Position numbers and translations under genes: made by a program. A stretch of 20,000 bases of DNA, from IMG/VR virus record IMGVR_UViG_3300010391_001807. The stretch is one strand, 5' to 3'. Under the pieces are notes generated by a model. It was given only the letters and a program-made list of their open reading frames with translations, made no database searches and was not told where the DNA came from. The stretch is from an uncultured virus (IMG/VR IMGVR_UViG_3300010391_001807) (lineage: Duplodnaviria > Heunggongvirae > Uroviricota > Caudoviricetes). This document shows, one piece after another, positions 2,691 through 17,219 of the stretch (its first letter is position 1; every line of letters begins with the position of its first letter).

Positions 2691-5318
2691 CTATTCACTT
2701 AAAGGCGGCAATAAATAAGAAACGGTAAAGATCAACTTGTCATCATGTTTCTTACTAGCGGTTACGTTGATTTTCCCTATCGTCCCACACTTGTCACAAT
2801 AGTAATCACTCTTGGCCCGGTGGACTTGCTTGTTGCCACAGGCAATACAAACAGTTCCCGGTGGTTTAGGGCCAGCAATCTGTTCATCGGTCAAACCTTC
2901 GATCTTATGCTTGGCCAACTTCACAAATTGCTCAGGAGTTCCATACCAACTAACTGAGGCAGCCATTGGCATTCCTCCGCCCATTGGAGCCCCGCCCATT
3001 GGAGCGGCAGGGCCAGCAGGTGGAGCCCCACCAGCAGGACCAGCAGCAGGAGGGCCAGGAGGTGCTAATGCAGCCCCCAAGCCCTCAGGAGCAGTTTCTT
3101 CTCCAGGCTGATCGGCTGTTTCATCAGGGGTTACGATATTATCAAGAGAAATCTTGATGTCGAACTTGGTATGACAATCTCCACATTCGCCTCTTCCGAC
3201 TGCTAAGTCAACATTGGTTGAACCACAAGCAGGACAGATGGAACCGATTGGTTTGATGTCACCAGGGGCAGCCATTGAATCTAGATTAGTATCTTCATCT
3301 TCGGCTCCCTCAGGACCAAGTAATGCGGAAAGACCAGGGCCTCCCATTGCGTCTGATGGAGGAGCACCTGGGGCACCGGCCCCACCAACATCTCCCATTC
3401 CTCCGCCGCCAGCAGGAGGTGGAGCGGCCTGGGCTTCTCTAATTAACGCTTCTCGGCGTTCCTTACGATTAGCTTTGGCCATTGGAGTCATGAATGTTTC
3501 ATCTATTCCACCGCCCTCTACTCCACTCTCAACTCCGGCATGAAATTCTGGAGTTTCAGGAGTATTCATTTCAATAGGTTCGTCACCAAATTCTTTGACG
3601 ATTGTGCTTTGAATGGTTGCGACAACCTCTCGGGTATCATTATTAACACTGAGTCTCGTAAAATTAAAAGTCTCAGGGTCTACTCTATAACCTTTGTTCT
3701 GTAAAAAAGCGATGGAATAATCTCTCACAGTGTCTGCAAATTCATCACTTGAAGGATCTGCGTTGGGGATTTCGTCCATGCTCATGCGGATTTCGCGAAC
3801 TGTGTCAGTTCGGTCGCTCATTGAGGCAGCTTCTTTGACATTATCATTTCGGGCTTGGATTGCAGCATTAACCAAGATTTTGCCATTCTCTCCACTGGCC
3901 GCTAATTTCTTAGCAACTTGCCAAATGAGATGACTAGGCATTTCTTTCTTATCATTGCTTTCTAAGGCCTCAGCATAATCTGCCAAAGAGGCAAATAATG
4001 AGGTTTTAATATCTTCTAAACCAATATCTTCCGTACTGGCTTGTTTGCCCCAATACTCTTTTCGCTCTTTGTTACGGATTCTAGACGCTACTGAATTTGG
4101 TAATCTTTCGGTCTCAATGGACATTAAAGCTTCTTGATTGTCTTCAATGCCGTCAATGACCTCAAATATCTCTTCTGGCGTTGCCCCAGTTTCACTAGCG
4201 GTTTCGGCTACTGCGAAAAGAGCCACTTTTAAATGTGAGCGGTCCAATGGTTGGTCAGATACTTCAGAAATTGATGCATAAACCGCACCTCTAATTAAAT
4301 CTTCCTGACTCTTTTCATCATCAGAAGATAATATAATATTTTGAGGGTTATTGTTAGCAATTTTAGTAATTACTCTCTTCATATCCCCTCTAGGTGCTTC
4401 TGCAATAATCTTCAAAGCATCTTTGATATTCTTAGGCGAAATATCTTCGTTTTCGATGAAGATGTCAGCGATTCTCTCATTAAAGGAAACATCAATAGCC
4501 TTTAGTGCTGGCTTGTCCAGCCCTAACTCTGCTCTTTCTCTAGTAGCCAATCTCTTTTTATAATCTTTTTCATTCATGAACGCAGCTACATCAGTAAGTT
4601 TGTGGTCAGTTGCAAATTTTTCTGCAAATTCGATGGCTTCAGATGGAGATACTCTAGCTTCAACAACCATATGAGCCAAGGCGGTTTGAGCGGCTCCGGC
4701 AACATGTACTGGATTAGCAGATTTGGACCTACGGCTTTCTAGACGATGCTCATGAACACGAACATCTTCTCCTTTGCGAACGTCACCCAGTTGTTCTTCT
4801 TGCACATCTTCTGGATTACCCTTGCGGCCCCAGACTGTAGCACTGTCTTCGGAAAGCTGTACTTCTCGAACATCAGTTGGGTTGCCCGTGCGGACTGCAG
4901 AAATCTGTTCTTCTTGAACATCTTCAGGATTTCCCTTTCGTTTGTCACCAATCTGTACCTCTTGGACATCTTCTGGGTTGCCAGAACGTTTCTTTGAGAT
5001 CTGTTCTTCTTGAACGTCACTAGGGGTCTGAACGGAGACGGCGGCGGTCTTAATAAAACCAACAAATTCATTCATTAATTTGTCAGTAACAGAAGCAATG
5101 CGATTCTCACGAATGGCATCGGCATCATCACTGTTTAATGTAGTTGGCTCCCAATCTGTTTTCTGGTCATTGTAATAACCAAGAATTTCTTCATCTGTTT
5201 TGTCACTAATGATAACCTTATATCGGCCATTATCACGACTGGCGATGATTGGTTGTTCTACAACAGTAGCCATTTTGTTCATAATTGCACTGGCTACTCT
5301 TTCATTTAAACTTTTCAT
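2691..5318 (-). CDS. Putative nested scaffold gene (875 aa, starts MKSLNERV) from an internal start in the protease gene
   Basis: AAGGAGGAG (5324-5332) lies 5 nt upstream of an in-frame ATG at 5318 (M526). Same architecture as lambda C/Nu3 and Mu I/Z. Confidence 0.6.
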   Translation of the reverse strand: MKSLNERVASAIMNKMATVVEQPIIASRDNGRYKVIISDKTDEEILGYYNDQKTDWEPTTLNSDDADAIRENRIASVTDKLMNEFVGFIKTAAVSVQTPSDVQEEQISKKRSGNPEDVQEVQIGDKRKGNPEDVQEEQISAVRTGNPTDVREVQLSEDSATVWGRKGNPEDVQEEQLGDVRKGEDVRVHEHRLESRRSKSANPVHVAGAAQTALAHMVVEARVSPSEAIEFAEKFATDHKLTDVAAFMNEKDYKKRLATRERAELGLDKPALKAIDVSFNERIADIFIENEDISPKNIKDALKIIAEAPRGDMKRVITKIANNNPQNIILSSDDEKSQEDLIRGAVYASISEVSDQPLDRSHLKVALFAVAETASETGATPEEIFEVIDGIEDNQEALMSIETERLPNSVASRIRNKERKEYWGKQASTEDIGLEDIKTSLFASLADYAEALESNDKKEMPSHLIWQVAKKLAASGENGKILVNAAIQARNDNVKEAASMSDRTDTVREIRMSMDEIPNADPSSDEFADTVRDYSIAFLQNKGYRVDPETFNFTRLSVNNDTREVVATIQSTIVKEFGDEPIEMNTPETPEFHAGVESGVEGGGIDETFMTPMAKANRKERREALIREAQAAPPPAGGGGMGDVGGAGAPGAPPSDAMGGPGLSALLGPEGAEDEDTNLDSMAAPGDIKPIGSICPACGSTNVDLAVGRGECGDCHTKFDIKISLDNIVTPDETADQPGEETAPEGLGAALAPPGPPAAGPAGGAPPAGPAAPMGGAPMGGGMPMAASVSWYGTPEQFVKLAKHKIEGLTDEQIAGPKPPGTVCIACGNKQVHRAKSDYYCDKCGTIGKINVTASKKHDDKLIFTVSYLLPPLSE

Positions 5319-6893
5319 TGATACTCCTCCTTCTTGAATAGTTGATTCAAATGTTTCTTCAGATTTTATATCCAAAGAATCTAAAATAGAGCCTAGCCTG
5401 ACATTGGCATTATTCAGATTTTGAGAAAACTTATTCCATTTTTTCTCAATGCCAGTAGATACTGTTTGTAAGAATCCAGGAGGCTCCAACGCCGGACTCA
5501 CTTGGAATGGGACATTATTAACTGCATTCCCAAGTACATTTGCAACGGGTTGTGTCTGTAGGGGTTGAGCAGGAGCTTCTTGCCCCATTGCTCTTCCAAC
5601 ATCCCCCGCAGCCGTATAATCATTAGGAGCCGCAATCTGTTGAGACTGATCTGGCTGTCCTAACCCTCCTTCGTTGCCAGGAGGTAGAGTGGCAGCTTCT
5701 GATAAAGTTCCGATACCATCATCGATCATGTCGGATACTTCTTGCTGGATGTCAGCCATGGCTTTAGATAGTTTGGCAACATGAGTTAAATCAATGTTGT
5801 CTTTTCTGCTTAATAGATTAATGATGACAGATTCAACTTTATTCAATACATCGTTTAATGTATCTAAAATGCTAAACGCCGTCTTCTCCATTCCAGCAGT
5901 CTTGTGCATGTTCTGAATGACCGCCCCAGAAAAGACATCAATTTTTTCCAAAATCCCCTTAGACTCGTCCAGGTAATGAGTTAATTCAAGGCTGGCCGAT
6001 GTTGCCCGCCTTTGCATGATCCCTTGGATATTTTGGTCTACCAAACTACTAATGTTACTGGCCGTTCTGCGTAATTTATCAGCATATGTGATAACTTCTT
6101 GATGTGGTAACACTTTGTCAATCTCACAATTCGCGAAAGCTCCATCGGAAACTATTGATAACTCAATAAATTTCAAATCATGGTTTTCTTCATAAACAAC
6201 TTCATCTGTTACCTTTTGGCCTTTTCTCTTCCCTTTATCAATGACGCCACTAAATTTCTTTCCCTTCCTAGTTTTTAAATGGTCACACCATTCTGATTCC
6301 TTCTCTGCTTTATGCCCGCAAAGTGAACACTCAGAAAATTCAACCTGTGCTCCCATTGATACGTCACTTATGGTGCCAATCTGAATGGAACGGGCAATGT
6401 CGCCATAAGCAGCCATATCTACATAAAAAGTACACCAGACGCACTTGTTTTCCTCATCTAATTCAGCAAATATAACCTTGCCCTTTGCTTTACTTATATC
6501 TCCATTTTCATGGTTGGTATAAACCGGAACGCCTTCGAAAGATTTATATGCTGCAATTTTTTTCTTATCACGATCACTTTGTATTTCTCTCTCTTTAGTT
6601 ATTTCTTCCCAAGAGAAATAATCGCCATTTTCATTGACTACATTAGCATCAATGGCCCTGGCCCTGACCCATAATAAGTCAGTATCTCTTTTCTTCATCT
6701 CGTCTACAATGTCAAACCCAACGCTCTTGTAATGTTCAATGACATCCTCGGGCTCTTCATATAAATTCTGTTTTCCAATTCTACCTGTGGTATCAGCCGT
6801 GCGAAGCATCTGTGAACGAACCAAATTCCCATCTGGATGTAAAATTTCCATACTATTAATAGGGATTCTTATTTCCCTACGTTCAAATGCCAT
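2691..6893 (-). CDS. Prohead (capsid maturation) serine protease fused to a long scaffold/core region (1400 aa)
   Basis: The N-terminal domain (~6120-6680) has the HK97/herpes-clan protease pattern: N.NGD.F, 'FEGVPVYTNH' (His), 'ISDVSMG' (Ser), a CSLC..CDH Zn insert and 'FIELSIVSDGA'. SD GGAGGT at 6902-6907; directly downstream of the portal. The remainder has helical repeats and two C-terminal Zn ribbons. Confidence 0.85.
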   Translation of the reverse strand: MAFERREIRIPINSMEILHPDGNLVRSQMLRTADTTGRIGKQNLYEEPEDVIEHYKSVGFDIVDEMKKRDTDLLWVRARAIDANVVNENGDYFSWEEITKEREIQSDRDKKKIAAYKSFEGVPVYTNHENGDISKAKGKVIFAELDEENKCVWCTFYVDMAAYGDIARSIQIGTISDVSMGAQVEFSECSLCGHKAEKESEWCDHLKTRKGKKFSGVIDKGKRKGQKVTDEVVYEENHDLKFIELSIVSDGAFANCEIDKVLPHQEVITYADKLRRTASNISSLVDQNIQGIMQRRATSASLELTHYLDESKGILEKIDVFSGAVIQNMHKTAGMEKTAFSILDTLNDVLNKVESVIINLLSRKDNIDLTHVAKLSKAMADIQQEVSDMIDDGIGTLSEAATLPPGNEGGLGQPDQSQQIAAPNDYTAAGDVGRAMGQEAPAQPLQTQPVANVLGNAVNNVPFQVSPALEPPGFLQTVSTGIEKKWNKFSQNLNNANVRLGSILDSLDIKSEETFESTIQEGGVSMKSLNERVASAIMNKMATVVEQPIIASRDNGRYKVIISDKTDEEILGYYNDQKTDWEPTTLNSDDADAIRENRIASVTDKLMNEFVGFIKTAAVSVQTPSDVQEEQISKKRSGNPEDVQEVQIGDKRKGNPEDVQEEQISAVRTGNPTDVREVQLSEDSATVWGRKGNPEDVQEEQLGDVRKGEDVRVHEHRLESRRSKSANPVHVAGAAQTALAHMVVEARVSPSEAIEFAEKFATDHKLTDVAAFMNEKDYKKRLATRERAELGLDKPALKAIDVSFNERIADIFIENEDISPKNIKDALKIIAEAPRGDMKRVITKIANNNPQNIILSSDDEKSQEDLIRGAVYASISEVSDQPLDRSHLKVALFAVAETASETGATPEEIFEVIDGIEDNQEALMSIETERLPNSVASRIRNKERKEYWGKQASTEDIGLEDIKTSLFASLADYAEALESNDKKEMPSHLIWQVAKKLAASGENGKILVNAAIQARNDNVKEAASMSDRTDTVREIRMSMDEIPNADPSSDEFADTVRDYSIAFLQNKGYRVDPETFNFTRLSVNNDTREVVATIQSTIVKEFGDEPIEMNTPETPEFHAGVESGVEGGGIDETFMTPMAKANRKERREALIREAQAAPPPAGGGGMGDVGGAGAPGAPPSDAMGGPGLSALLGPEGAEDEDTNLDSMAAPGDIKPIGSICPACGSTNVDLAVGRGECGDCHTKFDIKISLDNIVTPDETADQPGEETAPEGLGAALAPPGPPAAGPAGGAPPAGPAAPMGGAPMGGGMPMAASVSWYGTPEQFVKLAKHKIEGLTDEQIAGPKPPGTVCIACGNKQVHRAKSDYYCDKCGTIGKINVTASKKHDDKLIFTVSYLLPPLSE
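4730..5018 (-). repeat. ~48-bp (16-aa) tandem repeat, 5 copies plus 1 degenerate, consensus DVQE(E/V)Q(I/L)xxxRxGNPE
   Basis: DVQEEQISKKRSGNPE / DVQEVQIGDKRKGNPE / DVQEEQISAVRTGNPT / DVREVQLSEDSATVWGRKGNPE / DVQEEQLGDVRKGE / DVRVHEHRLESRR. Confidence 0.9.
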
Positions 6894-7038: not shown

Positions 7039-7161
7039 CTAGAATAGACATATATTATGTTCGGACTCTAACTTTTTGTCTATTGATGCTATAATTCTCA
7101 TTAAATAAAATGTTGAATATTTTTCTAAATATTCTTCCATGTTACATGATGATTTCTCCAT
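7039..7161 (-). CDS. Possible small ORF (40 aa; 33 aa if started at 7140)
   Basis: MEKSSCNMEEYLEKYSTFYLMRIIASIDKKLESEHNICLF*. Starts 1 nt after the portal stop and fills the gap before the terminator, but it is AT-rich with only a weak SD. Confidence 0.25.
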   Translation of the reverse strand: MEKSSCNMEEYLEKYSTFYLMRIIASIDKKLESEHNICLF

Positions 7162-7162
7162 T

Positions 7163-10100
7163 CTATTGTGCCTGCTTGGGGGAAGTGGCCCCCTGCTTAG
7201 TCATTTCGGGTTCCTCTTGAGCAATTGTCCGATTAATTGGTTGACTCTTCTGGTTAATTGCATTTGTAATGACTTTTACTACATCCTGCATTTTTTCTTC
7301 GATTTCGCCCTCAGTAAATCTTAAAACCAACCACCCCTGTGAGGCAAGCTGGGTGTCACGATAACGATCTTTTTGAACCTTGTCATCATCTATGTGCCAA
7401 GTTTCACCATCGGCTTCGACCGCAACTTTAATGTCTGGGAAAGCACCATCCACTCTAAATTGATGATTACCATTAACTAAATACTGCATGAAGAATTTCA
7501 ACGGATAATTCTGTGACATAACCGCTTGATATAATTTAGCTTCAATAGAGGTCACTGGTGGTTTGTAGCCAATATTTTTATCTTTTTGTTTAGGATCTGG
7601 AGTTCCCATCAATCCTGCAGTTTTATAATGTTTTGTGATGATTTTGTCATAAACATTTGCATTAGAAGCATACAAGTATGATAATGGATAGCCTGGGGCT
7701 CCCCAGGTTGGAGTAATATCTAATAGAGCAATGGCATCTGCTTCTTCTGGCAATTCACCTCTGGCCCCATTTCCATCAACGATTCTATTCATGTCTGGCA
7801 AAAAGACATTCATGGTTTCAGTTGTTCCTGCAGTGCGAACCATGTTCCCAATATGTTGAGAGGCAGCTACTACTGTTCTATAATTCTCACTTAGAGCATT
7901 AGCTGTTGCTGCGGCAGGAGCCCCACCGGGAGCCCCACCTGGAGCCCCGCCCATGGCTCCTCCAGGCATTCCGCCCTCTGCAACAGGAGGCATTCCTCCC
8001 ATATCCCCACCCTCAGGCATGCCACCGCCCATCGCCGGAGGCATTACTGGCCCTCCGCCACCATAACCCCCTCCCGCTACATCTCCCGTGCCTACTCCTA
8101 ATCCAAGATTTGGACTGGCAAACATTTCTGACATTTCCTCTAACCTCATATTCTCAATTTCATTGTCCATATCTAAACCAAGGCCCTCTTCAATGAATGT
8201 TCTGGCCGATAAATCACCATTAGTCCTGGCCTGCCACATGAATTGTAATTTTTGAGAATTGTCTCTTAATTTTAAGTCATCCCAACGAACTGTTGGATAA
8301 ATATACTCTGTTTCTCCTCTTCTATTCTTATGAGTGAACCCATTAAATTCTGCAACTGGCTTGAATACTTTTTCCTCTAACCAGTTAGCAATTAAATTTC
8401 TTACGCTTTCTAAACGCTTGATGACAATTTCTACGGCAACCTGGGCATTAGAATAAGTAGGACCTTCGCCAGATAAAATGGCCTTCGTCAAACCTAAACC
8501 ATCAACCATCTCATTTTCAATCTGTTCAACTTCATTAGTTAATTGTAGGACCTTCCCAGAATTACCATGAATACCTATTTTACCATTTCTTTTAGTAATA
8601 AACAATCCAGTTGGTACTTGTAGACACCAAACAATATCATTATATGATTCTTTTGATATGTTTCTAGATCTAATTTCTCTAGTTTCCTGTTTAGTTTCAG
8701 GCCAATAAATTCTATAAATAGGTAATGGCGTATCTGTTTTATTAGTTTTTCTAATAGTTTCCATAGATACTTTAGGATTATATCCAAGTTTAATTAAAAT
8801 TTCTTGAACATTATCTGCTAATTCTTTAGATGTTGTAGAATATCTATTTTTACTTTTATTATTACAAGTGACAATATCTCCGTCACCATCCATTAAAGCA
8901 TCTAATAATATGGATAATTGTGATTGTGGCAAGTTTAACATCCATTGTGGGATTTTTTTACCATACGATTTAATACCAAATTCATTCACCAAATATCTAG
9001 ACAATTTAATATCATGTATTTTAAAATTTCTAACCTTTTCATTATTAATAGATGTTTTATATTTATTCTTAAAACACTTCTCTATATTTGATAATATTTT
9101 ATAATATGAATTATTATTTTCTTTTTGGTATATATATGTAGTTCCATTTAATTTATTTTCTTTGCTTGATCTTTGTTGGCTTCCTTCTGCAATATAATAT
9201 CCAATAAATCTAATAAAATCATTTAACTGTATATCTTTTAATATATCTATATTAGTATATGGATAATGATCTAAAAGAGAGCCAGCCCAATCTACAGATG
9301 ATAAAACTTTATCAAACTCTTGTATTTCATCAGCCCTAACTTTCATCCATTTAAAATCATATCTATTTTCTTCTTTATTCCATTTTCTCTTTTTTATCCA
9401 TAACATATGGTTAGGAGTAACTAAAGAATCATAATGCTTACCATGAATATTAATCATCGGCCCATAAGTTTCAGAATTGTAATCATAAATATATTTTTCT
9501 TCATATTTATAATATTCTAACTTATTATTTTCTGGATTATAGCAAGCAATATTATCATCTTCTAATACATCTGTATATTTTTTGAATCCATTTTTAGTTA
9601 ATACTTCTGTATCTGAAGAATAACAAGCTCCAACATAGTCATATTCAAAATCATGGTAAGTGACCAAAGTTGCAATTGGGTCATTAGCGATCTCTGCTAG
9701 TCTGGCTTGCAAATCATCAATATCTTGTTGGCTTGCAGGGCGATTATCACTGCCAATTTTGACAATTTTGATAGGGACAATGTGTCTTTCGGCGACGATC
9801 CACTGAGCCTGTCGGAGTTTATCCTTGTAGGCTAGAGTAGGAAATAGACGGCGAATTAATGGGACCCCATAGGTTGCATACGGCGGAGCCCCATGTTTAA
9901 AATGATGGATAGTTAAAGGATCTAGAGGAATTTTCTGGTTGGACCGCACTAATTTCTTAAGATGCTCTGGAATTCTAGCAACCACATCTTTCGGCTTATT
10001 ATCCTGAACCAACTTCTTCAATTCATTATTTGGGGTTAAATAGATTCTAGCTGCCTCAGGAGACAATGGCACGGGAATAACTTCCACTGTCAACGGGTCT

Positions 10101-10693
10101 AAAATGCTAATTCCTGACCAAGATGCTCCAGCATGGTCGCATTCCTCACCACCCTCTGTCATTCCCTGTCCTTTACATTTTGGACAGTCAATTTCCATCA
10201 TGACAAAAGCATCACCCATACCGAAATATTCTCTCAAAATCTTGGGCAAAGAAGATTCTAAGTCAATTTTTCTGATCATGTTCTCAAAATATTCTTTGAC
10301 CGCTGCATTAGGACAATCTAATTCGAAATGATTCATAGGAAAGTCCGAGAAAAAATCTATGGCCATGGCAATGCGTCCTTCATTTGCTATCCAGTAACTG
10401 CACCACTTGTAGACTTCAGTGCGGTTAGTAGGGATTTGCCATGCAGACGGGGTGTGTTGTGGCTGATAAAAACCTGGAGGGGTTTGAGTAATCCCCTGTG
10501 ATTGACTCGTGACTGTTCTACCCCTAGATGCTCTACGGGTATTATCGTAAAAAGACGAATTAACAAAAACAGGAGTTCCTCCTGCCGTGTTCATAGCTGG
10601 TATGTCGGGTTCTGTGTAAGAAGAGGCAAAATAACTTGCTCCCCTAATATTATTCCCCAATAATCTTCTTGGGGTTCCGGTGCGTTGCAGCAT
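7163..10693 (-). CDS. Portal protein precursor (1176 aa) with an intein and a C-terminal Vsr/DUF559-like endonuclease domain
   Basis: Portal-like motifs: 'IAMAIDFFSDFP', 'ILREYFGMGDAF', 'ILDPLTVEV', 'IHHFKH..PPYATYGVPLIRR', 'IKIVKIG', 'GLGLTKAILSGEGPTYSNAQVA', 'WLEEKVFKPVAEFNGF', 'PTVRWDDLKL'. Lies directly upstream of the prohead protease; SD GAGGGAG. Confidence 0.85.
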   Translation of the reverse strand: MLQRTGTPRRLLGNNIRGASYFASSYTEPDIPAMNTAGGTPVFVNSSFYDNTRRASRGRTVTSQSQGITQTPPGFYQPQHTPSAWQIPTNRTEVYKWCSYWIANEGRIAMAIDFFSDFPMNHFELDCPNAAVKEYFENMIRKIDLESSLPKILREYFGMGDAFVMMEIDCPKCKGQGMTEGGEECDHAGASWSGISILDPLTVEVIPVPLSPEAARIYLTPNNELKKLVQDNKPKDVVARIPEHLKKLVRSNQKIPLDPLTIHHFKHGAPPYATYGVPLIRRLFPTLAYKDKLRQAQWIVAERHIVPIKIVKIGSDNRPASQQDIDDLQARLAEIANDPIATLVTYHDFEYDYVGACYSSDTEVLTKNGFKKYTDVLEDDNIACYNPENNKLEYYKYEEKYIYDYNSETYGPMINIHGKHYDSLVTPNHMLWIKKRKWNKEENRYDFKWMKVRADEIQEFDKVLSSVDWAGSLLDHYPYTNIDILKDIQLNDFIRFIGYYIAEGSQQRSSKENKLNGTTYIYQKENNNSYYKILSNIEKCFKNKYKTSINNEKVRNFKIHDIKLSRYLVNEFGIKSYGKKIPQWMLNLPQSQLSILLDALMDGDGDIVTCNNKSKNRYSTTSKELADNVQEILIKLGYNPKVSMETIRKTNKTDTPLPIYRIYWPETKQETREIRSRNISKESYNDIVWCLQVPTGLFITKRNGKIGIHGNSGKVLQLTNEVEQIENEMVDGLGLTKAILSGEGPTYSNAQVAVEIVIKRLESVRNLIANWLEEKVFKPVAEFNGFTHKNRRGETEYIYPTVRWDDLKLRDNSQKLQFMWQARTNGDLSARTFIEEGLGLDMDNEIENMRLEEMSEMFASPNLGLGVGTGDVAGGGYGGGGPVMPPAMGGGMPEGGDMGGMPPVAEGGMPGGAMGGAPGGAPGGAPAAATANALSENYRTVVAASQHIGNMVRTAGTTETMNVFLPDMNRIVDGNGARGELPEEADAIALLDITPTWGAPGYPLSYLYASNANVYDKIITKHYKTAGLMGTPDPKQKDKNIGYKPPVTSIEAKLYQAVMSQNYPLKFFMQYLVNGNHQFRVDGAFPDIKVAVEADGETWHIDDDKVQKDRYRDTQLASQGWLVLRFTEGEIEEKMQDVVKVITNAINQKSQPINRTIAQEEPEMTKQGATSPKQAQ
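7255..7555 (-). other. Vsr/DUF559-like PD-(D/E)xK endonuclease domain at the portal C-terminus
   Basis: TSIEAKLYQA..FFMQY..FRVDGAFPDIKVAVEADGETWH..KDRYRDTQLASQGWLVLRFTEGEI matches the DUF559/Vsr pattern (E, Q, D, ExDG, H, RD..L...GW.VLRF). It is in frame with the portal with no intervening stop. Confidence 0.85.
8561..9625 (-). mobile_element. Intein (355 aa) with a LAGLIDADG homing endonuclease, inserted in the portal gene
   Basis: N-junction DYVGA|CYSSDTEVLTKNG (Cys357); block B 'LVTPNHMLW'; LAGLIDADG blocks 'FIGYYIAEGS' and 'LLDALMDGDG'; block H 'YSTTSKELADNVQEILIKLG'; blocks F/G 'VWCLQVPTGLFITKRNGKIGIHGN|S'. DNA is sharply more AT-rich than the flanks (e.g. 7 G+C in the 60 nt at 9061-9120). 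Confidence 0.95.
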
Positions 10694-11075: not shown

Positions 11076-12863
11076 TTATTCCCCTGTAGGTCTAATAGAA
11101 TCTTTTCTAGGATAAGCTTGTTCCAATAATTCATCCATCAACTTATCTGTGTCAAACTTGAAGCTTTCCCTGAATTCTAATAATCTTTTTTCTACATTGG
11201 CATCTACTTCTTTGCCTTTATCTTTTTTATTATACAGTCTAGCTTCAGTATTTGAATCTACTTCATCTTTTTTATTAATTCCTCTCAATTTTGCCTCGGT
11301 GTTCTGGTCATAGCCAGTTTCGTGGCGATGAATGTCCTTAGAAGTTAAAACTTCATCTAATAATGATTCATAATTCAGCATTTTGCCAGGAGCCCCAGAG
11401 GTTGTTTTCTTGGAGGTTTTTAAATTATCCCACTCTCTGCCTCGAATATCAGCCTCTTCCATTCTTAGTTCGGTGCCCTTCATATATCCTCGTGGTGCCC
11501 ACGCTCGTTTCCCATCGGGTAATCTTAAATTCATGTCTTCATTATTAGGATTTTTCTGTACATCCAGTTTATCCATTACCTTGGCATGACTATCGGCCAC
11601 GTTTTCTAACCAATAAGCATATCGACAGAGAACACTACCATCTGTTTCAGTTTTCCCTTCGATGCAGTCTCTGCCACAAAAGGTCCAGGAAACAGGGATA
11701 TCTGTTCTGTTAAATGTTTTATATTTTGGACACATGTTATACCCGTGATTTACCCCACCGTCTCCTCTCGTCTCATAGAAAGCTTTCTTTAACATGGTTT
11801 TTTGTGGTAATAAACTATGATAAGCATATTTTAATCTTTCTGAAAGGTTCTCAAAGAATTCTGCGGTTTCGCTATAACAAGTTAGGTCTGAAATTAAACC
11901 ACTAATCACTTTTTTGGTCTTTTTATCTAAGGTAGTGGCATATTTCTCTGGGTTAAGATAACGAATTACTTCAGACACAACTAATTCATTAACATGGTTT
12001 GGATTATCAGCACATTTGACTAGTAAGTCAAAAGCCTCTTTGGTATTATAAATATATGTATCGCTGCTAGCAGAAGCAAATCTCTTCTGGATTTGGCTCA
12101 TGGCTGCAATGGTTTCACCAACATCATGGGAAACATCTTCTAAATTCTCTTCACAACCATTACATCCTTCTGGCAAAGCATTATGTGGTTTATCACCCAG
12201 ATTGATGACTTTCTCATCAACGTGCATTGGGCCGTCTCCCTCTTTCTTTCCAGTCATCATTGTAATTTTGCCCCTGATACCATCTAATTTCCCTTTATGC
12301 TCAGGGGATAGGACCACACCAGACAGTGGAAGACTATCTAAAATATTAGAATTCATCATTTTATTCATTAAGGACATTACACCAGAATTACCTTCTTCAT
12401 GAGAAGATGTAAGATCAGCGACTAGAAGACTCAGGATGTCCTGAATTTTCTTGAGATGATCAGCAATATTGAACCCAAATGTGTCTTCAGATTCCTCTAG
12501 CCCCTCTGGTTCCTCATCTCTGCCCTCATCACCCTCATCACCCTCATCACCCTCATCACCCTCGTCACCCTCGTCACCCTCATCATCCTCGTCATCCTCG
12601 TCGTAATCCTCTTCGAATTCACCTTCTGGTTCTTCGAGTTCTTCAACTTCCTCAGATTCATCATGAGGCCCTTCTAATTCTTCCGATCCAGATTCTTCAT
12701 CATGAGACTCCATGCTCTTTTGAAGGTTAAACTTAGGAGTTTCTTCCTCCAATTTATGTTTAGGAGCAAAACTTTTCATTTCTTCTGATGTATAAAATCT
12801 TGGATTTGTTTTTTTCTCAAGATGTTCTACTCTTTCTAACTGTGGTTTGCTAAACAATGGCAT
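11076..12863 (-). CDS. Hypothetical acidic protein (~595 aa) with a DEG repeat, a Cys-rich domain and ExRL repeats
   Basis: The ORF track starts at GTG 12872, but ATG 12863 has better SD spacing (AGGTG-6nt-ATG). Contains the CPK..FCGRDC..LCRY Cys cluster and C-terminal NTEAKL/NTEARL/NVEKRL repeats. Confidence 0.8.
   Translation of the reverse strand: MPLFSKPQLERVEHLEKKTNPRFYTSEEMKSFAPKHKLEEETPKFNLQKSMESHDEESGSEELEGPHDESEEVEELEEPEGEFEEDYDEDDEDDEGDEGDEGDEGDEGDEGDEGRDEEPEGLEESEDTFGFNIADHLKKIQDILSLLVADLTSSHEEGNSGVMSLMNKMMNSNILDSLPLSGVVLSPEHKGKLDGIRGKITMMTGKKEGDGPMHVDEKVINLGDKPHNALPEGCNGCEENLEDVSHDVGETIAAMSQIQKRFASASSDTYIYNTKEAFDLLVKCADNPNHVNELVVSEVIRYLNPEKYATTLDKKTKKVISGLISDLTCYSETAEFFENLSERLKYAYHSLLPQKTMLKKAFYETRGDGGVNHGYNMCPKYKTFNRTDIPVSWTFCGRDCIEGKTETDGSVLCRYAYWLENVADSHAKVMDKLDVQKNPNNEDMNLRLPDGKRAWAPRGYMKGTELRMEEADIRGREWDNLKTSKKTTSGAPGKMLNYESLLDEVLTSKDIHRHETGYDQNTEAKLRGINKKDEVDSNTEARLYNKKDKGKEVDANVEKRLLEFRESFKFDTDKLMDELLEQAYPRKDSIRPTGE
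12523..12603 (-). repeat. 9-bp tandem repeat (ccctcRtca x7 plus 2 degenerate) encoding (DEG)7
   Basis: Directly visible: ccctcatca/ccctcgtca units. Confidence 0.95.
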
Positions 12864-16865: not shown

Positions 16866-17219
16866 CTATTTGAAATATAGCTGTTGATTGTTGCCGTCAA
16901 TGACCAAGAAATCACCAGTTTTGACTCCATCCAATGCCCCTTGACTAGTTTCCACAACATATTTAATACTATGACTCATCGCCCTACAAGGTAATGTCTG
17001 TCCAGCGTCCATTGTTTTCACCGCTATGACATACCCATTGCTATCACAAAAAGCCAAATGTAAAGGATATGAAACATTCTTATTCCAGAACGCATGGTCA
17101 CCTGTCTTATTGAAAGCAAACACAGCACATTTGTCATCATCTATCTTTTCGGTGAACATCAATCCCTTTTCTCTTTTTTCATCATTATCAGCATAAATTA
17201 TGATATCATATTTTTTCAT
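16866..17219 (-). CDS. DUF192 (COG1430) family protein
   Basis: AD..EKREKGLMF..., 'VFAF', 'FWNKNVSYPLHLAFCDSNG.VI', 'YVVETSQG', 'VKTGD' match the DUF192 pattern; SD GAGG. Confidence 0.9.
   Translation of the reverse strand: MKKYDIIIYADNDEKREKGLMFTEKIDDDKCAVFAFNKTGDHAFWNKNVSYPLHLAFCDSNGYVIAVKTMDAGQTLPCRAMSHSIKYVVETSQGALDGVKTGDFLVIDGNNQQLYFK

Follow-up and report, generated by a model that had tools for sequence, protein, structure and literature searches.

Portal proteins are regarded as passive rings, valves or sensors, and the terminase is credited with the nucleolytic steps of packaging. In solved structures the portal is a dodecamer at one vertex, with the C-terminal crown of each subunit facing the capsid interior. 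The HNH protein gp74 of HK97 works with the terminase and T4 endonuclease VII binds the portal protein gp20, both of them separate proteins outside the head, whereas the C-terminal barrel of the P22 portal reaches into the head and is not an enzyme. Here we describe a portal gene from an uncultured giant phage of sediment (IMG/VR record IMGVR_UViG_3300010391_001807; the 20,000-nucleotide stretch that was analysed is called the window) in which the portal frame continues, past a Gly/Pro/Met-rich linker, into a DUF559/Vsr-like nuclease domain. The fusion is genuine and conserved, a variant not described so far of the theme of an enzyme carried on the portal vertex.

Enzymatic domains fused to portal-vertex proteins have been described in the context of “polyvalent proteins,” where the fusion is interpreted as placing the enzyme in the head (Iyer et al. 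2017, PMC5512222); the fused domains treated in the available part of that paper are the PBECR RNase, the 2H phosphoesterase and InPase, the last exemplified by the portal-InPase fusion of Burkholderia phage BcepF1. An earlier reading of the window from its letters alone (the sequence-only reading) had held that packaging nucleases are normally separate genes, and this needs qualification, since portal/MuF-effector fusions are described in the available text of PMC5512222 and only the portal-DUF559 combination is not. The fusions described there are patchy, whereas the one reported here extends through a whole lineage and changes no faster than the portal core. Vsr and DUF559 go unmentioned in the available portions of PMC5512222 and of a survey of jumbo phages (PMC7824862), and we found no description of a portal-DUF559/Vsr fusion in the literature covered, which left subscription journals aside.

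The closest described relatives of the nuclease itself are I-Bth0305I and the other EDxHD homing endonucleases (3r3p), which have the same catalytic fold, share an acidic/His motif with the phage domain and, according to the available part of PMC3239194, nick or cut DNA. They differ in that they carry N-terminal NUMOD-like regions, stand in an intron/intein or split-intein context and occur sporadically, whereas the phage domain is a fixed, single-copy C terminus of a portal. NGO0050 of Neisseria gonorrhoeae (3hrl), a stand-alone DUF559 protein, has the same fold and is the best sequence match of the phage domain in the PDB; stand-alone DUF559 domains are small free bacterial proteins or C-terminal domains of helicases, and none is part of a virion protein. 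Escherichia coli Vsr (1vsr, 1cw0) belongs to the same fold superfamily, but the template modelling score (TM-score) on Vsr is only 0.44, and the T:G mismatch specificity that is a trait of Vsr finds no evidence in the phage domain. Among portals, the closest deposited one is gp14 of Bacillus phage G (30.5% identity over 90% of the N-extein, E 2e-37), also from a giant phage, which is 648 residues long and lacks DUF559.

A nuclease domain behind the portal crown

The genes around the portal form a run on the minus strand of the window, and the portal is encoded by one uninterrupted open reading frame (ORF) that extends from position 10693 to position 7163 (Table 1). A Pfam scan of its product matched Portal_Mu (PF06074; 32.2 bits against a cut-off of 23.9) in the N-terminal part and DUF559 (PF04480; E 9e-11, 42.1 bits against 20.6) in the C-terminal part, and the PHROGs portal family phrog_16240 was matched at E 1.5e-36. 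REase_MTES_1575 scored under its Pfam cut-off, and the Vsr family model was not matched in the scan at E <= 1, which returned only DUF559, MTES_1575, Portal_Mu, LAGLIDADG_3 and Hint; weak PADLOC matches (HEase, E 2e-4; methyl-directed REase, E 2.9e-4) were not used. The portal core is split by an intein (LAGLIDADG_3, 34.5 bits against 22.5, with a Hint signal), before which the N-extein ends in VGA; the intein starts with Cys and ends in HGN, and the C-extein starts with SGKVLQL, placing Ser at position +1.

The sequence-only reading had singled out positions 7163-8130, which correspond to residues ~855-1176, i.e., from the linker to the stop codon. Its central claim, that the portal is fused past this linker to an apparently intact Vsr/DUF559 domain that lies outside the intein, is borne out by the single ORF, by the Pfam match, by the intein boundaries and by the conservation of catalytic-type residues described below. 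The host-gene-like base composition that it had also attributed to the domain was a misjudgement, in that the DUF559 part has a GC content of 0.394 (GC3, at third codon positions, 0.364) against 0.398 for the window and is therefore phage-like. The real compositional outlier is the intein (GC 0.254 over residues 356-735, GC3 0.14), and the high GC of the linker is due to its Gly, Pro and Ala codons.

We built an AlphaFold2 (AF2) model of residues 900-1176 on an alignment of 52 sequences and obtained a predicted local distance difference test score (pLDDT) of 79.6 and a predicted TM-score (pTM) of 0.73, the nuclease domain reaching a pLDDT of 90-97. The top match of this model in a Foldseek search of the PDB was the catalytic domain of I-Bth0305I (3r3p; E 9.6e-4, TM-score on the target 0.83), followed by the DUF559 protein 3hrl (TM-score on the target 0.76) and then by E. 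coli Vsr; at the level of sequence, the best PDB matches were 3hrl (E 0.009) and 3r3p (E 0.025). In alignments of 41 and of 52 sequences, E1051, D1082, D1095, H1100, G1120, W1121, R1125 and F1126 are invariant, and Q1070, E1093, D1109, R1112 and D1113 are at least 90% conserved, so that the E-x-D motif of the query reads E1093-A-D1095. As a pattern, compared without superposing individual residues, these positions appear to be the acidic/His set that the available part of PMC3239194 describes for Vsr and the EDxHD family. In four relatives (L055, L061, L068 and P0119) a class-1 intein is inserted exactly between the E and the CDG of an E-C-D-G motif, with the junctions ...E/CLHP...HN/CDG..WH (slashes mark the intein ends). 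Inteins favour the conserved active-site motifs of essential proteins and cluster there, and their position inside the E/CDG motif fits a constrained catalytic site. The middle region that joins the linker to the nuclease is partly helical and modelled at high pLDDT, found no fold match in the Foldseek search of the PDB with the 900-1176 model, and has as its sole conserved element a G-x-L-P-[ED]-[ED] motif (G in 38, L in 36 and P in 28 of the 52 sequences).

The fold of the portal part was tested on an AF2 model of an intein-free homologue (P0002, 58% identity), which showed a confident core at residues ~80-500 and a confident DUF559 domain, with disorder at 501-563 (the linker, pLDDT <50) and 586-643. 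This model had 163 PDB matches at E <= 0.001, the top ones all portals. VIA-align superposed it on the portals of P23-45 (Z 19.8, root mean square deviation [rmsd] 5.1, 346 aligned residues, model 79-482 on chain 47-428), lambda (Z 19.4, rmsd 4.9, 366 aligned, 82-499 on 51-506), Mu (Z 17.4, rmsd 5.7, 339 aligned, 1-479 on 18-401) and T4 (Z 16.2, rmsd 7.0, 352 aligned, 83-504 on 71-516). Residues 79-500 of the homologue thus align to whole solved portals through the C-terminal crown (Z 16-20), the core equivalent ends at residue ~497-500, and the linker comes directly after it. Since the crown faces the interior in solved portals and the linker follows the crown, the tether and the nuclease, in twelve copies, should lie inside the head. 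The earlier suggestion of up to 12 nuclease copies in the capsid interior is upheld to this extent, as an expectation from the topology of solved portals.

That the frame is continuous does not depend on this assembly, because other sequences keep it. A 98%-identical IMG/VR record of 17 kb (G001) has the same frame with no stops and a DUF559 match of 47.3 bits; it differs from the window by one non-synonymous and three synonymous changes in the DUF559 part, and in length the two differ solely by a 4-codon insertion near the junction of linker and middle region. A contig from the probable source run spans window positions 7100-8600 with one difference, and a contig from a second study spans the same positions with 38 substitutions and one 12-nucleotide in-frame insertion; a third study has a 12-nucleotide insertion in the same area. 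The length of the linker therefore differs between strains by 12-nucleotide steps, and all length changes preserve the frame. Contigs from an RNA library (run X3) also cover parts of the domain, although contigs cannot show transcription.

Table 1. Features of the portal ORF and of the gene downstream of it (window positions; aa, residues of the respective protein)
Feature	Positions	Strand	Basis
Whole portal ORF P0001, 1176 aa	7163..10693	-	ORF listing, Pfam, PHROGs
Portal N-extein, aa 1-356	9626..10693	-	Portal_Mu and phrog_16240 matches; intein boundaries
LAGLIDADG intein, aa 357-711 (355 aa)	8561..9625	-	Pfam, composition, splice-junction residues
Portal C-extein core up to the crown, aa 712-850	8144..8560	-	Alignment A1
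Gly/Pro/Met-rich low-complexity linker, aa 851-905	7979..8143	-	Sequence, GC 0.564
Middle region (adaptor), aa 906-1040, ~135 aa	7574..7978	-	AF2 model, alignment, dN/dS
DUF559/Vsr-like PD-(D/E)xK nuclease domain, aa 1047-1146	7256..7555	-	Pfam, alignments, Foldseek
Variable C-terminal tail, aa 1147-1176 (30 aa)	7166..7255	-	Homologue comparison
Downstream gene, 1400 aa, with N-terminal prohead-protease domain	2691..6893	-	phrog_18299, phrog_2774

Conservation of the fusion in a giant-phage lineage

A search with the N-extein (residues 1-355) returned 220 proteins, of which the best 120 were listed (40-60% identity, on contigs of up to 422 kb); the search admitted only proteins of 646-2058 residues and is thus biased toward fused forms. 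The nuclease domain was matched in 114 of the 120. Among the other six, P0014, P0037 and P0042 end inside the core or an intein, P0110 ends at the first residues of the domain, P0005 ends in the middle region, and P0030 is taken up below. No clean, complete portal without the extension was present among the 20 hits of a second search for shorter proteins (30-645 residues), where, besides three hits with aberrant ends (see below), the sequences are cut in inteins or at contig ends.

A whole-protein scan of IMG/VR for close relatives found only G001, and the profile from alignment A1 was needed for a wider set. At the DNA level this portal profile identified 230 loci in IMG/VR, of which the best 80 were kept; these include G001 and some near-duplicates, and ranking by likeness to a query that is itself fused may give such forms an advantage. 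Portal core and complete DUF559 domain share one open frame in 75 of the 80 loci, so that the fusion is conserved in related phages by this count as well as by that of the listed proteins. The remaining five comprise L029, cut within the domain by the end of its contig, L010, L028 and L064, cut earlier by contig ends, and L021, which has an in-frame TGA; no locus cleanly lacking the domain was found among the 80. In each of five genomes that are 98-100% complete (461-548 kb) there is exactly one PF04480 match, and it lies in a portal frame of 757-776 residues. A search of the representative library with residues 900-1176 gave 3592 hits at E <= 0.001, the best of which were portal C termini and the others free DUF559 proteins and helicase fusions. 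The lineage numbers no fewer than 230 loci in IMG/VR and 220 protein clusters, with genomes of up to ~550 kb. Automatic annotation hides these portals behind a label, as the name assigned to them by JGI is “very-short-patch-repair endonuclease.”

The domain is also under strong constraint. Its column conservation (0.51-0.62) is at the level of the portal core, compared with 0.34-0.39 for the middle region. Ratios of non-synonymous to synonymous substitution rates (dN/dS) were calculated by the Nei-Gojobori method for 16 non-independent pairs with a synonymous divergence (dS) of 0.05-1.0 in the core, drawn from 1711 pairs of 59 loci. In the DUF559 domain the ratio lies at 0.011-0.015, compared with 0.02-0.025 in the portal core and 0.11-0.13 in the middle region; the value of ~0.01 for the domain denotes strong purifying selection. 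Across pairs, identity in the core correlates with identity in the domain (Mantel r 0.88, with none of 999 permutations as high), which argues for vertical co-inheritance.

Other parts of the portal vary. The tail behind the nuclease domain is 2-134 residues long across homologues; P0085, P0088, P0092, P0103-P0105, P0107, P0116 and others have an extra 40-134 residues there, and this subgroup with extended tails shares a recurring ...G.L.D......Y..Y... pattern. The portals of the lineage are hot spots for inteins, with about four positions in the core (profile ~32, ~50, ~290 and ~327) and one in the nuclease motif, and some portals have three, e.g., that of L077 (1687 residues). The N-extein contains a Cys-x2-Cys...Cys-x-His cluster (CPKC...CDH from residue 170, residues 170-186; window ~10100-10190, minus strand) that is invariant in the 41 portals of alignment A1 (C163, C166, C178 and H180 in the numbering of P0002). 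It is a probable zinc knuckle within the portal core, and we know of none such from solved portals.

Possible roles of the portal nuclease

We are highly confident that the DUF559 domain is genuine, is fixed and serves the portal as a functional module. Its conservation suggests a constitutive and catalytically competent part of the portal in a large giant-phage lineage and not a selfish insert; the nuclease activity, its substrate and its timing are what we infer from these observations. A nuclease that remains tethered in the head and cuts or nicks DNA at the portal is, as a tentative choice, the most likely mechanism. The domain would hang off the crown on a disordered Gly/Pro/Met tether of ~55 residues and an adaptor of ~135 residues, and in the assembled head twelve copies would be positioned at the inner mouth of the DNA channel. 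Staying tethered, they would carry out site- or structure-specific nicking or cutting as DNA passes or ends at the portal, and this step would be a core part of genome packaging or release. We favour this reading because the domain is conserved like a core virion component, unlike a selfish gene or a polymorphic effector. The more far-reaching proposal that the portal itself is an enzyme, its twelve tethered Vsr-like domains nicking or cutting the phage's own DNA inside the head (for example, to nick it at specific sites, to process the leading end, or to make the termination cut or serve as its backup), strikes us as unlikely. If it were true, processing would be shared between the terminase outside and the portal inside, and this would be the first catalytic portal.

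Several observations weigh against a tethered nuclease acting in the head. A nuclease beside the packaged genome poses a paradox, unless its action is specific or it stays latent. The adjoining protease gene and the conserved GxLP[ED][ED] motif of the adaptor fit release over tethering, and portal/MuF-effector fusions are read as injected proteins in the available part of PMC5512222. One homologue (P0030, 784 residues) keeps the linker and a GRGxxGxLP motif in front of a different C terminus of ~200 residues, which is unrelated to DUF559 and had no Pfam, PADLOC or usable ESM Atlas match, and this may represent an exchange of the C-terminal module, i.e., of cargo. In L021 the single in-frame TGA lies in the linker (11519-11521) and parts the portal core from the nuclease, and the ends of P0305, P0307 and P0308 look frameshifted in or after the linker; these may be natural split forms, or else errors that arose in a stretch of low complexity and high GC. 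Finally, a close match to the portal or a portal-DUF559 fusion was absent from 50,697 deposited phage records, where tblastn with the domain found helicase fusions only, and no cultured member of the lineage is known.

The main rival to the tethered nuclease is a packaged and injected one, for which the C terminus of the portal would carry the nuclease into the prohead, the protease would cut the linker or the adaptor, and the free nuclease, about 12 copies per virion, would be ejected together with the DNA, its target in the infected cell being host DNA or a defence system. The portal/MuF-effector fusions, read as injected proteins, provide a precedent, and the protease-bearing gene directly downstream, the disordered tether with its motif-bearing adaptor, the exchanged domain behind the same linker and motif in P0030 and the possible split variants all point the same way. 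The portal gpH of phage Mu is processed during head assembly. Arms-race effectors are usually polymorphic, however, whereas here the same domain occupies 114 of 115 complete or near-complete C termini with a dN/dS of ~0.01, and among the 120 listed homologues only P0030 has another C-terminal domain. Furthermore, the RTA/KTA motifs (MVRTAG and HYKTAG) that the sequence-only reading had put forward as release sites are not conserved in the 52 aligned sequences, no conserved cleavage motif was found, and a role as cargo would not need fusion to the portal itself. We therefore consider an injected nuclease possible but somewhat doubtful.

Whether the domain might make a cut that the terminase does not, such as headful termination or end trimming from inside the head, which would split the nuclease work between terminase and portal, depends on the large terminase subunit (TerL). 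Searches with the Pfam models Terminase_6N and Terminase_6C and with TerL (gp1) of phage G found no terminase in five complete genomes, and a Pfam scan of all 112 ORFs of at least 300 residues in one of the lineage's genomes (G006; complete, 461 kb) found none either. PHROGs then identified TerL in G006 as a protein of 624 residues encoded ~14 kb upstream of the portal (phrog_2, E 5.4e-25, residues 108-578), with homologues in 5/5 other genomes, two of them interrupted by insertions. The initial absence was thus a problem of sensitivity: TerL of this lineage is highly divergent and escapes the Pfam terminase models, and phage G TerL does not detect it. In the C-terminal half, D402, D472 and D554/D555/D558 are invariant among five sequences and look like what we take to be the RNase H-type nuclease site of TerL; comparison with the PDB, using a single sequence or a 5-sequence profile, gave weak matches to the ATPase domain only (E ~0.08-0.2), and these did not confirm the nuclease site. 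Because TerL keeps these acidic motifs, it is unlikely that the portal nuclease replaces an absent terminase nuclease. A complementary cut gains something from the divergence of TerL, from its having escaped the first searches and from the place of the domain at the channel exit, but with TerL present and its acidic residues retained we regard it as improbable.

The tethered nuclease also has to be set against readings in which the domain does not act as an enzyme of the phage. The fold could have been kept as a DNA-binding or structural module that holds the genome end or senses filling without catalysis, as would suit a domain at the inner portal mouth next to DNA that must stay intact; we see little likelihood in this, since the invariant residues are exactly the acidic/His residues of a Vsr/EDxHD-type site (as given in the available part of PMC3239194) and inteins sit within that motif. 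The domain could instead belong to a Vsr-type (EDxHD) homing endonuclease gene that became inserted at the 3' end of the portal gene and is still selfish, an alternative already raised in the sequence-only reading. I-Bth0305I is indeed the best structural match, the weak PADLOC match to HEase agrees with this, and these genomes are rich in inteins and LAGLIDADG genes, but the domain is fused in nearly all loci, occurs as a single copy in each of the five genomes, has diverged in step with the portal and is strongly constrained by purifying selection; the Pfam scan of the protein (E <= 1) showed no DNA-binding module of the NUMOD type, and the domain's composition equals that of the phage. A homing gene is thus very improbable. 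We give almost no credence to an artefact in which a frameshift, an assembly chimera or a missed stop joins two separate genes. The linker is GC-rich, of low complexity and error-prone, and a stop or frameshift-like ends occur there in L021, P0305 and P0308, but G001 has the same frame, the contig from another study shows an in-frame length change only, and a single frame is found throughout the great majority of the 80 loci.

A whole giant-phage lineage thus keeps an intact nuclease on what is predicted to be the inward-facing end of each portal subunit. If this holds, either DNA is processed enzymatically inside the head or the portal serves as a carrier of fixed stoichiometry for an injected nuclease, and either outcome would add a new element to the biology of head assembly and infection. 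The domain is small, so that it can be tested by recombinant expression without culture of the phage.

Genes around the portal

The gene downstream of the portal encodes a protein that opens with the protease domain and continues with a long acidic/helical region; it also has Gly/Pro/Ala/Met linkers, and two CxxC...CxxC ribbons at its C terminus, and it is likely the protease/scaffold of the same head. In the window region 2691-3600 it has two portal-like low-complexity linkers, each followed by a CxxC...CxxC zinc-ribbon-like motif, and the GC peak of 0.548 at 3001-3500 is due to these Gly/Pro/Ala/Met linkers. Such linkers may be a common trait of the head-internal proteins of this phage. The counterpart in G001 (L004, a frame of 1837 residues) carries an intein of 425 residues after window residue 181 (...DVSMG/CFPVG...AKN/CQVE...), probably in the active-site region of the protease; the window has Ala where G001 has the +1 Cys, so that the intein is polymorphic for presence and absence between near-identical strains.

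Ten of the 12 neighbouring ORFs scanned had no Pfam match above the curated cut-off and no PHROG match. A DUF192 protein (PF02643, E 8e-19) is encoded at 16866-17219 on the minus strand, among ORFs of the structural region. The complete genome G006 (L087-L118) has inteins in the ribonucleotide reductase (RNR), in a papain-like protease and in a primase-like gene, and it encodes the actin-like protein Volactin, a PARP-like protein, a ligand-gated ion-channel-like protein, several DNA methyltransferases, RecA and a split Pol III alpha.

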